Assembly: GCF_024223415.1 (NCBI RefSeq)
Contig: NZ_CP100500.1
Direction: 5' to 3' (one strand)
Source of the DNA: Escherichia coli
GTDB lineage: Bacteria > Pseudomonadota > Gammaproteobacteria > Enterobacterales > Enterobacteriaceae
DNA: 64,000 nucleotides
Shown: positions 32,733 to 36,343 of the stretch, in pieces
How positions within the stretch are numbered: position 1 is the stretch's first letter
How the letters are laid out: the number at the start of each line of letters is the position of its first letter
Position numbers and translations under genes: made by a program
The notes under the pieces: generated by a model
Databases searched by the model: none
What the model was told of the DNA's origin: nothing
Seen by the model: only the letters and a program-made list of their open reading frames with translations

Positions 32733-34022
32733 ATGACGCGCCGTGCTATCGGGGTGAGTGAAAGACCGCCACTTTTACAGACAATCCCGCTTAGTTTGCA
32801 ACATTTGTTCGCCATGTTTGGTGCAACCGTCCTGGTGCCCGTCTTATTTCATATTAACCCGGCGACTGTACTGTTATTTAACGGTATTGGAACGCTGCTG
32901 TATCTCTTCATCTGTAAAGGGAAAATTCCGGCTTATCTTGGTTCCAGCTTTGCCTTTATTTCACCGGTATTGTTACTGTTGCCGTTAGGGTATGAAGTCG
33001 CGCTGGGCGGCTTTATTATGTGCGGCGTGCTGTTCTGCCTGGTTTCTTTTATCGTGAAGAAAGCGGGGACCGGCTGGCTGGACGTGCTGTTTCCACCTGC
33101 GGCAATGGGCGCAATCATTGCCGTCATCGGTCTGGAGCTGGCGGGCGTAGCTGCCGGTATGGCGGGTTTACTCCCGGCTGAAGGGCAAACGCCAGACTCC
33201 AAAACCATCATCATCTCTATTACCACCCTGGCGGTCACGGTTTTAGGTTCCGTGCTGTTTCGTGGTTTCCTGGCAATTATCCCGATTTTAATTGGCGTGC
33301 TGGTGGGGTACGCGCTCTCTTTCGCAATGGGAATTGTCGATACCACGCCGATTATTAATGCTCACTGGTTTGCGCTGCCAACCCTCTATACGCCGCGCTT
33401 CGAGTGGTTTGCCATTCTGACTATTCTGCCAGCGGCGTTAGTGGTTATTGCCGAACACGTAGGGCACCTGGTAGTAACGGCTAATATCGTCAAAAAAGAT
33501 CTGCTGCGCGATCCAGGTCTGCACCGTTCGATGTTTGCTAACGGCCTGTCGACCGTGATCTCCGGCTTCTTTGGCTCCACGCCAAACACCACCTACGGGG
33601 AAAACATTGGCGTGATGGCGATCACCCGTGTTTACAGTACCTGGGTTATCGGCGGGGCGGCGATTTTCGCTATCCTGCTTTCCTGCGTCGGTAAACTGGC
33701 TGCTGCTATCCAGATGATCCCATTGCCGGTGATGGGTGGTGTTTCGCTGCTGCTTTACGGTGTCATCGGTGCTTCTGGTATTCGTGTGTTGATCGAATCG
33801 AAAGTGGATTACAACAAAGCACAGAACCTGATCCTGACTTCCGTGATTTTGATCATCGGCGTCAGTGGCGCGAAGGTAAACATCGGCGCGGCGGAGTTGA
33901 AAGGTATGGCGCTGGCGACCATCGTCGGTATCGGCTTAAGTTTGATTTTCAAACTGATCAGTGTGCTGCGCCCTGAAGAAGTGGTGCTGGACGCAGAAGA
34001 CGCGGATATAACAGACAAATAA
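32733..34022 (+). CDS. uraA: Uracil:proton symporter
   Basis: 429-aa polytopic membrane protein from [16 protein letters not shown]; upp-uraA operon. Confidence 0.9.
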
Positions 34023-34116
34023 TGTACCGACCGGGCAGTGTTGCTGCCCGGTTCAAACATCATGGCATTCTGTGGTAAACTTCTCGCGATTTTGTGAAAT
34101 CCTGGTTGAGGTATCT

Positions 34117-34818
34117 CTGAACACACCGGCACAGCTCTCTTTGCCACTTTATCTTCCTGACGACGAAACCTTTGCAAGTTTCTGGCCGGGGGATAACTCC
34201 TCTTTACTGGCCGCGCTGCAAAACGTGCTGCGTCAGGAACATAGCGGTTACATCTATCTCTGGGCACGCGAAGGCGCGGGGCGCAGCCATCTGCTGCACG
34301 CGGCTTGCGCGGAATTGTCGCAGCGTGGCGATGCGGTGGGCTATGTCCCACTGGATAAACGCACCTGGTTTGTTCCGGAAGTGCTCGACGGTATGGAGCA
34401 TTTGTCGCTGGTCTGTATCGACAACATTGAGTGTATTGCAGGTGATGAGTTGTGGGAGATGGCGATTTTCGATCTCTACAATCGAATTCTGGAATCGGGC
34501 AAAACACGGTTGTTGATCACCGGTGATCGTCCACCGCGGCAGTTGAATCTGGGATTACCGGATCTCGCGTCGCGACTCGACTGGGGGCAGATCTACAAAT
34601 TGCAGCCACTTTCTGATGAAGATAAGTTGCAGGCGCTACAGTTACGCGCGCGTTTGCGTGGTTTTGAACTGCCGGAAGATGTGGGGCGTTTCTTGCTGAA
34701 GCGGCTCGACAGAGAAATGCGCACGCTATTTATGACGTTGGATCAGTTGGATCGTGCGTCGATTACCGCGCAACGTAAGCTGACCATTCCGTTTGTGAAA
34801 GAAATTCTGAAGTTGTAG
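34117..34818 (+). CDS. hda: DnaA-inactivating AAA+ protein Hda, initiating at CUG
   Basis: AAA+ ORF; a CTG codon at 34117 with GAGG Shine-Dalgarno about 8 nt upstream gives a 233-aa product beginning (M)[13 protein letters not shown]. Confidence 0.8.
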
Positions 34819-34911: not shown

Positions 34912-35438
34912 TGAACTGCACCCCAAATGTTGGACATAATCTGACATCTGAAGGTGCAGTTTATGAAACATTCATTTGAAGTAAAACTTGCCGCTGTAAA
35001 TCATTACCTGGCCGGTCATGCAGGCATCATTTCTACGGCAAAACTCTTTCAACTTTCTCACACCAGCCTCTCACACTGGATTAATCTTTTTCTTCTTCAC
35101 GGTCCTCAGGCACTGGATTGCAGACACAAGCGTAGCTATTCTCCTGAAGATAAACTTTGCGTGGTTCTTTATGCTCTCGGGCATTCTGAGTCTCTACCCC
35201 GGGTAGCTGCCCGGTTTAACATTCCCAGCCACAACATGGTTAAAAACTGGATAAAAGGCTACCGCAAATCTGGTAATGAGGCCTTTATCAGGCGCAGGAA
35301 GGAGAAAAGCATGACCCGTTCTGATGATACCCATGAAAACGAGGCAAACATGACGCCGGAAGAGATGAAGAATGAGCTGCGTTATCTTCGCGCAGAAAAT
35401 GCATATCTGAAAGCCATGCAGGAGCATCTCCTGGAAAA

Positions 35439-36343
<905 letters not shown>

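Follow-up and report, generated by a model that had tools for sequence, protein, structure and literature searches.

Where translation of hda begins is the question raised by this locus. Together with the DNA-loaded β clamp, Hda converts ATP-DnaA to ADP-DnaA and so inactivates this initiator of replication (PMC5397184), and its gene lies in the 64,000-nucleotide stretch of Escherichia coli DNA analysed here, referred to below as the window. The first-pass annotation, made from the letters of the window, had proposed that hda is initiated at a CUG codon. We consider it very probable that the 233-residue protein is made from the CUG at 34117, served by a GAGGU Shine-Dalgarno (SD) sequence, and that ribosomes do not initiate at the GTG at 34072. 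The CUG start is already known, having been published and annotated since 2008, and the additions made here are modest: the invariance of both CTG and GAGGT across Enterobacterales, the placement of this codon at the homologous start position of the family, and the reading of the former GTG start as probably part of a promoter. The practical point is one of annotation: with the start set correctly, the clamp-binding motif falls at residues 6–11.

The protein encoded at this position is, by profile and sequence matches, unambiguously Hda. It scored 474.8 bits against the NCBIfam model NF005982 for the DnaA regulatory inactivator (equivalog cut-off 268) and 281.7 bits against TIGR03420 (curated cut-off 194.8), and Pfam domains were assigned as Bac_DnaA (PF00308) at residues 16–159 followed by Hda_lid (PF22688) at residues 167–231. 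The sequence is 100% identical to residues 21–253 of chain E of PDB 5x06, a construct in which a 20-residue tag is followed by MNTPAQ. Counted from the CTG, QLSLPL occupies residues 6–11 and corresponds to the expected N-terminal Hda motif QL[SP]LPL. In a 26-sequence alignment, Q6, L7, P10 and L11 are invariant, as are S152, R153 and L154; R153 is the box VII arginine finger, Arg153, whose role is stated in the Hda–β-clamp structure paper (PMC5397184). The reading frame from the CTG comprises 233 codons (34117–34815) and is closed by a TAG at 34816–34818. Gene order around it is upp, uraA and hda on the forward strand, then an insertion sequence (IS) element, and arsC (yfgD) on the reverse strand, and the region was recovered at 95% identity or higher in 5,425 of 5,426 complete E. 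coli genomes. The features discussed below are collected in Table 1.

Table 1 Features of the hda start region in the window
Feature	Position	Strand	Basis
hda coding sequence	34117..34818	+	Open reading frame and translation; RefSeq CDS coordinates map exactly here
CTG (CUG) initiation codon	34117..34119	+	RefSeq annotation, publication, conservation
Shine-Dalgarno GAGGT	34108..34112	+	4-nt spacer to CTG; anti-SD duplex −6.9 kcal/mol
Codons of the β-clamp-binding motif QLSLPL (residues 6–11)	34132..34149	+	Translation; numbering of PMC5397184
GTG, former hda start (248-aa form), still called by gene finders	34072..34074	+	No SD, −1.5 kcal/mol
TGnTAAACT box, putative extended −10 element of the hda promoter	34073..34081	+	Conservation (inferred)

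Given the position of the QLSLPL codons, any real start of hda must lie upstream of them. In the hda frame, the nearest upstream stop is the TAA at 34009, and between it and the conserved N-terminus the GTG at 34072, in frame with the CTG and 45 nt away from it, is the sole ATG, GTG or TTG. The first-pass annotation had described this GTG as the only in-frame ATG or GTG upstream and as lacking a convincing SD, and both statements are exact: the predicted pairing with the 3′ end of 16S rRNA is −1.5 kcal/mol at this GTG and −6.9 kcal/mol at the CTG, with other candidates ranging from +0.3 to −1.7 kcal/mol. Further in-frame near-cognate codons, an ATC at 34099 and a CTG at 34102, are likewise without an SD. 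The annotation had also noticed a GAGG at suitable spacing ahead of the CTG and a 233-aa product, which agrees precisely with our analysis; the GAGG (34108–34111) in fact extends to GAGGT. A GAGG located 4–9 nt ahead of an in-frame CTG is not a rare chance occurrence in one sequence, and the weight of this pairing derives from its conservation, described below.

Previous annotation and literature point to the same codon. The RefSeq hda coding sequence of strain SCU-316 (WP_001307333.1, 'DnaA inactivator Hda') maps to 34117–34818 of the window, and hda of K-12 MG1655 (b2496, NP_416991.2) is 702 nt long and begins CTGAACACACCG, its CTG being at coordinate 2618776 on the minus strand. The K-12 gene shares the start codon and the SD, and its 233-aa protein is identical to that of the window; the two copies differ at three synonymous positions in the coding sequence and at one position in the 60 nt upstream, and the window strain additionally carries an IS3-family element downstream, outside the gene. 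The CTG start, adopted by both EcoGene and RefSeq, is credited to Su'etsugu et al. 2008 (J Biol Chem 283:36118) in the second-hand account of EcoGene 3.0 (PMC3531124), according to which the experimental demonstration of initiation at the CUG was reported there, and the crystal structure paper on the Hda–clamp complex (Kim 2017, PMC5397184) numbers Hda 1–233 with the motif as 6-QLSLPL-11. No ribosome-profiling data for hda were found in the literature searched. The statement in the first-pass annotation that Hda uses a non-canonical CUG start is thus backed by curated annotation, by the literature and by structural numbering, as well as by the comparative tests that follow.

For these tests, hda with its flanks was collected from 80 species-level Enterobacterales genomes, whose Hda proteins are 84–99% identical to that of E. 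coli; counts out of 81 include the window. The first-pass annotation had suggested an alignment of enterobacterial Hda N-termini as a check, and in this alignment the codon at 34117 is CTG in 81 of 81 sequences (80 of 80 species). It is preceded by GAGGT in all 81, seven copies being shifted by 1 nt, and the SD energy associated with the CTG lies between −6.3 and −7.2 kcal/mol in 80 of 80 species. Plesiomonas, Proteus and Xenorhabdus also retain the arrangement GAGGTG-N3-CTG. On the 3′ side of 34117 the conservation profile is codon-like (two conserved positions followed by a variable one), and on the 5′ side it consists of separate blocks. In 25 species, among them Klebsiella pneumoniae, K. 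oxytoca, Enterobacter cloacae and five Serratia, the frame is closed by a stop 12–45 nt before the CTG and the interval contains no ATG, GTG or TTG, so that a canonical codon cannot yield a protein with the clamp motif there. More broadly, 48 of the 80 other genomes contain an in-frame stop within 75 nt 5′ of the CTG, and at least 39 of these 48 lack a GTG upstream of position −6.

The nucleotides of the first codon are themselves conserved. Among 29 leucine positions conserved across 80 usable sequences, position 1 alone is codon-invariant (CTG in 80/80), whereas each of the remaining 28 uses two to seven codons, TTG occurring at 27 of them. The nucleotides of codon 1 are therefore selected beyond the coding of leucine. 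TTG, GTG and ATG are each one change away from CTG; no such replacement was detected in the 80 genomes, in 38 metagenomic sequences or in three further Enterobacterales loci. The nucleotide immediately preceding the CTG is T in 33 of 34 aligned sequences.

Upstream of the SD, the conservation profile peaks at TGNTANANT, which is situated 34–39 nt 5′ of the CTG in 78 of 81 sequences. The copy in the window reads TGGTAAACT, the general form is TGnTAnAnT, and it overlaps the former GTG start. This box is probably an element of the hda promoter, its form resembling an extended −10 element, and the conservation of the GTG at 34072 is accounted for by this overlap. From the position of the box, the hda transcript is predicted to begin at about 34088, 7 nt 3′ of the TAAACT hexamer, which would be downstream of the GTG. 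A T-rich GTTTTTnTG is located 3′ of the box, near the predicted transcript start. A consensus promoter and terminator scan of 33900–34300 called nothing, the two-hexamer σ70 search passing over the box; as the scan is silent, the promoter proposal is drawn from conservation. The literature searched yielded no hda promoter or transcript-start data. Just past the uraA stop (34020–34022) lies an inverted repeat at 34030–34052, ACCGGGCAG-TGTTG-CTGCCCGGT, the 3′ arm of which, GCCCGGTT, many species share. The repeat has no T-run, which explains why the terminator scan makes no call, and it may terminate uraA transcription weakly or in part, letting some transcripts continue into hda. Such read-through could place the GTG at 34072 on some mRNAs. 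A mini-ORF running from an ATG at 34063 to a TGA at 34098 was considered and dropped, as conservation of this ATG does not extend even to E. albertii.

Automatic gene finders disallow CTG, and for this reason Hda forms of 248, 235 or 225 aa are still emitted; each corresponds to an alternative start that has to be weighed against the CTG. The original annotation placed the start at the GTG at 34072, giving a 248-aa protein with a 15-residue N-terminal extension. In the window strain this is the sole canonical in-frame start 5′ of the conserved N-terminus, and automatic calls include a 248-aa Hda cluster with 3510 members. We nevertheless regard this start as very improbable. Beyond the absence of an SD, the 15 codons following the GTG show neither protein-level nor three-base conservation, and the distance from the GTG-containing box to the CTG varies among species over the 34–39 nt noted above, so that the frame is not kept. 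In-frame stops separate the old GTG from the CTG in most species, the GTG falls within the conserved −10-like box, and both curated annotation and literature reject it. In E. coli SCPM-O-B-8794 (L002), a 1-nt insertion, aaatccCtggtt, about 20 nt 5′ of the CTG relative to the window, takes the old GTG out of the hda frame and introduces a stop in that frame at −42, which means that conservation of the 248-aa frame fails already within genomes labelled E. coli. A start at the TTG at 34141 (Leu9), giving a 225-aa protein beginning MPLYLPDD as in some entries, is scarcely credible. Although TTG is a canonical bacterial start and a small number of database proteins have this codon as their first (P0064, P0105, P0108), it lacks an SD (−1.7 kcal/mol), 50 of 80 species have CTG in its place, initiation at it would remove part of the clamp-binding motif, and codon-type conservation starts already at 34117, 5′ of it.

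A further alternative arises from species in which the SD reads GAGGTG, namely 20 of the 80 (L050–L053, L055, L060–L063, L065, L067–L069, L071, L073–L077 and L080), among them Erwinia, Yersinia, Pantoea, Hafnia, Rahnella and Pectobacterium. There, the GTG two codons 5′ of the CTG could be the true start of a 235-aa protein (MLLNTP...), with the use of CTG in E. coli being derived after a GTG-to-GTA change. Gene finders give 235-aa forms, as do many RefSeq entries, and the NF005982 model itself has 235 positions, E. coli Hda aligning from position 3. Against this, no separate SD serves the GTG at −6 (mean +0.33 kcal/mol in the 20 species), which lies inside the SD of the CTG (−6.9 kcal/mol), the CTG is also invariant in these species, and the residue between the two codons varies freely. 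In the window the codon at −6 is GTA, so this GTG is not available there. We consider the 235-aa start quite improbable, and in the GAGGTG species the SD analysis favours the CTG over the GTG. Public annotation of these species is split between the 235-aa (GTG) and 233-aa (CTG) forms, even within a single species, as with Hafnia paralvei P0032 and P0035.

Beyond Enterobacterales, the CTG can be placed in a family context. Metagenome contigs were scanned with the pattern QLxLxxxLPDDETF, which returned 120 loci, 90 of them distinct and usable, and the codon five positions before the motif Q was scored in each. Metagenomic hda sequences at 80% or higher identity to E. coli Hda carried CTG at this position in 38 of 38 cases. 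The 52 more distant sequences carried ATG (26), GTG (15), TTG (4) or a non-start codon (7), and in the last seven the start has visibly moved to −3, −12 or −21. Among genomes, the homologous position is GTG in Shewanella, Ferrimonas, Aeromonas-like and Gallaecimonas sequences and TTG in Vibrio stylophorae, Psychrobium and Celerinatantimonas. As judged from these alignments, the enterobacterial CTG is at the homologous start position of the family. A weak non-ATG start as a rule for the whole family was suggested by seven of seven non-enterobacterial genomes, which use GTG or TTG, and was rejected on account of the 26 ATG starts among the distant metagenomic sequences. The neighbourhood of hda also differs outside Enterobacterales: the upstream neighbour is a gene for a DUF2066 protein rather than uraA (L082–L084, L087–L089), an Aeromonas-like contig (L085) has upp there, and arsC or DUF2069 is often found 3′ of hda on the opposite strand. 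These neighbours suggest that the hda–arsC neighbourhood is older than the uraA–hda junction.

How initiation at the CUG would proceed can be outlined as follows. The strong, invariant GAGGU would recruit the 30S subunit and place the ribosome at the CUG, where the initiator tRNA would pair through a first-position mismatch; with the initiator tRNA reading this codon, Hda should carry (f)Met as its first residue, which matches the PDB construct. The poor start would then keep Hda output low even though the SD is strong. CUG initiation amounts to about 1–2% of AUG initiation in reporter assays (Hecht et al., bioRxiv 063800). Both a shortage and an excess of Hda have consequences: a shortage leads to over-initiation, as observed upon loss of Hda (PMC5835720), and an excess delays initiation and induces SOS, raised Hda being harmful in a dnaN159 background (PMC5397184). 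Because CUG is weak, excess Hda is harmful and the codon has never changed in the Enterobacterales sampled, we lean towards the view that CUG serves to hold Hda at a low level at which replication initiation is not disturbed. The ATG starts in half of the distant sequences (26/52) speak against this rationale, as a weak start is evidently no requirement of the family.

The CTG could also be the start and yet be fixed for a reason other than Hda scarcity, such as IF3-linked initiation that couples Hda to translation status, or a constraint at the nucleotide level. The absolute invariance of the CTG, together with the nearly invariant T at −1, is stronger than a merely weak start needs, and infC is an established case of a non-canonical start controlled through IF3. 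A conserved RNA structure at the CTG, by contrast, was rejected as the reason for its invariance: the consensus fold amounts to −3.8 kcal/mol with 0 covarying pairs, and the E. coli hda leader folds worse than shuffled sequences (z = +1.26). Overall, we consider fixation for such another reason unlikely. A more specific proposal, that the strong SD combined with an IF3-discriminated CUG forms an order-wide regulatory device through which Hda tracks the translation apparatus, is likewise unlikely. If it were true, the state of IF3 and initiator tRNA would link the control of replication initiation to growth physiology, and the absence of changes from CTG to TTG, GTG or ATG would reflect selection for translation coupling. 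Limitation of Hda synthesis by the CUG is the reading we favour.

Other genes with non-canonical or sub-optimal starts offer points of comparison. The infC gene, encoding IF3, has an AUU start with autoregulation that limits a dosage-sensitive protein. Like hda, it thus combines a non-canonical start with limitation or regulation of a dosage-sensitive product; its regulatory loop through IF3 has been demonstrated, whereas in hda the low efficiency of CUG is what we infer. A second confirmed E. coli gene with a CTG start is yfjD, which encodes an unrelated protein; conservation and the ribosome-binding site had pointed to its start, which start-codon mutagenesis then confirmed (EcoGene 3.0, PMC3531124). 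The partner of hda in the same control circuit, dnaA, likewise has a sub-optimal start, a GUG with a poor SD, and changing this GUG to AUG raises the DnaA level (Hansen and Atlung 2018, PMC5835720). The two differ in degree and in design: GUG is canonical and about 2–3 fold below AUG, whereas CUG is about 50–100 fold below, and the CUG of hda is paired with a strong SD, unlike the GUG of dnaA.

Downstream of hda, the window contains an insertion of approximately 1.43 kb (34912–36343) between hda and arsC compared with SCU-316 and K-12. Its two open reading frames encode an HTH_28/HTH_Tnp_1 protein (34954–35484) and an rve integrase-core protein (35589–36311), and its ends are TG...CA-type terminal inverted repeats, TGAACTGCACCCCAAA and TGAACTGAACCCCAAAA. 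The insertion interrupts a REP-like palindrome, GCCGGATAAGACGTGGCA|AGCGTCGCATCCGGC, in its loop. By its size and its REP target it may be the IS3-family element IS1397.
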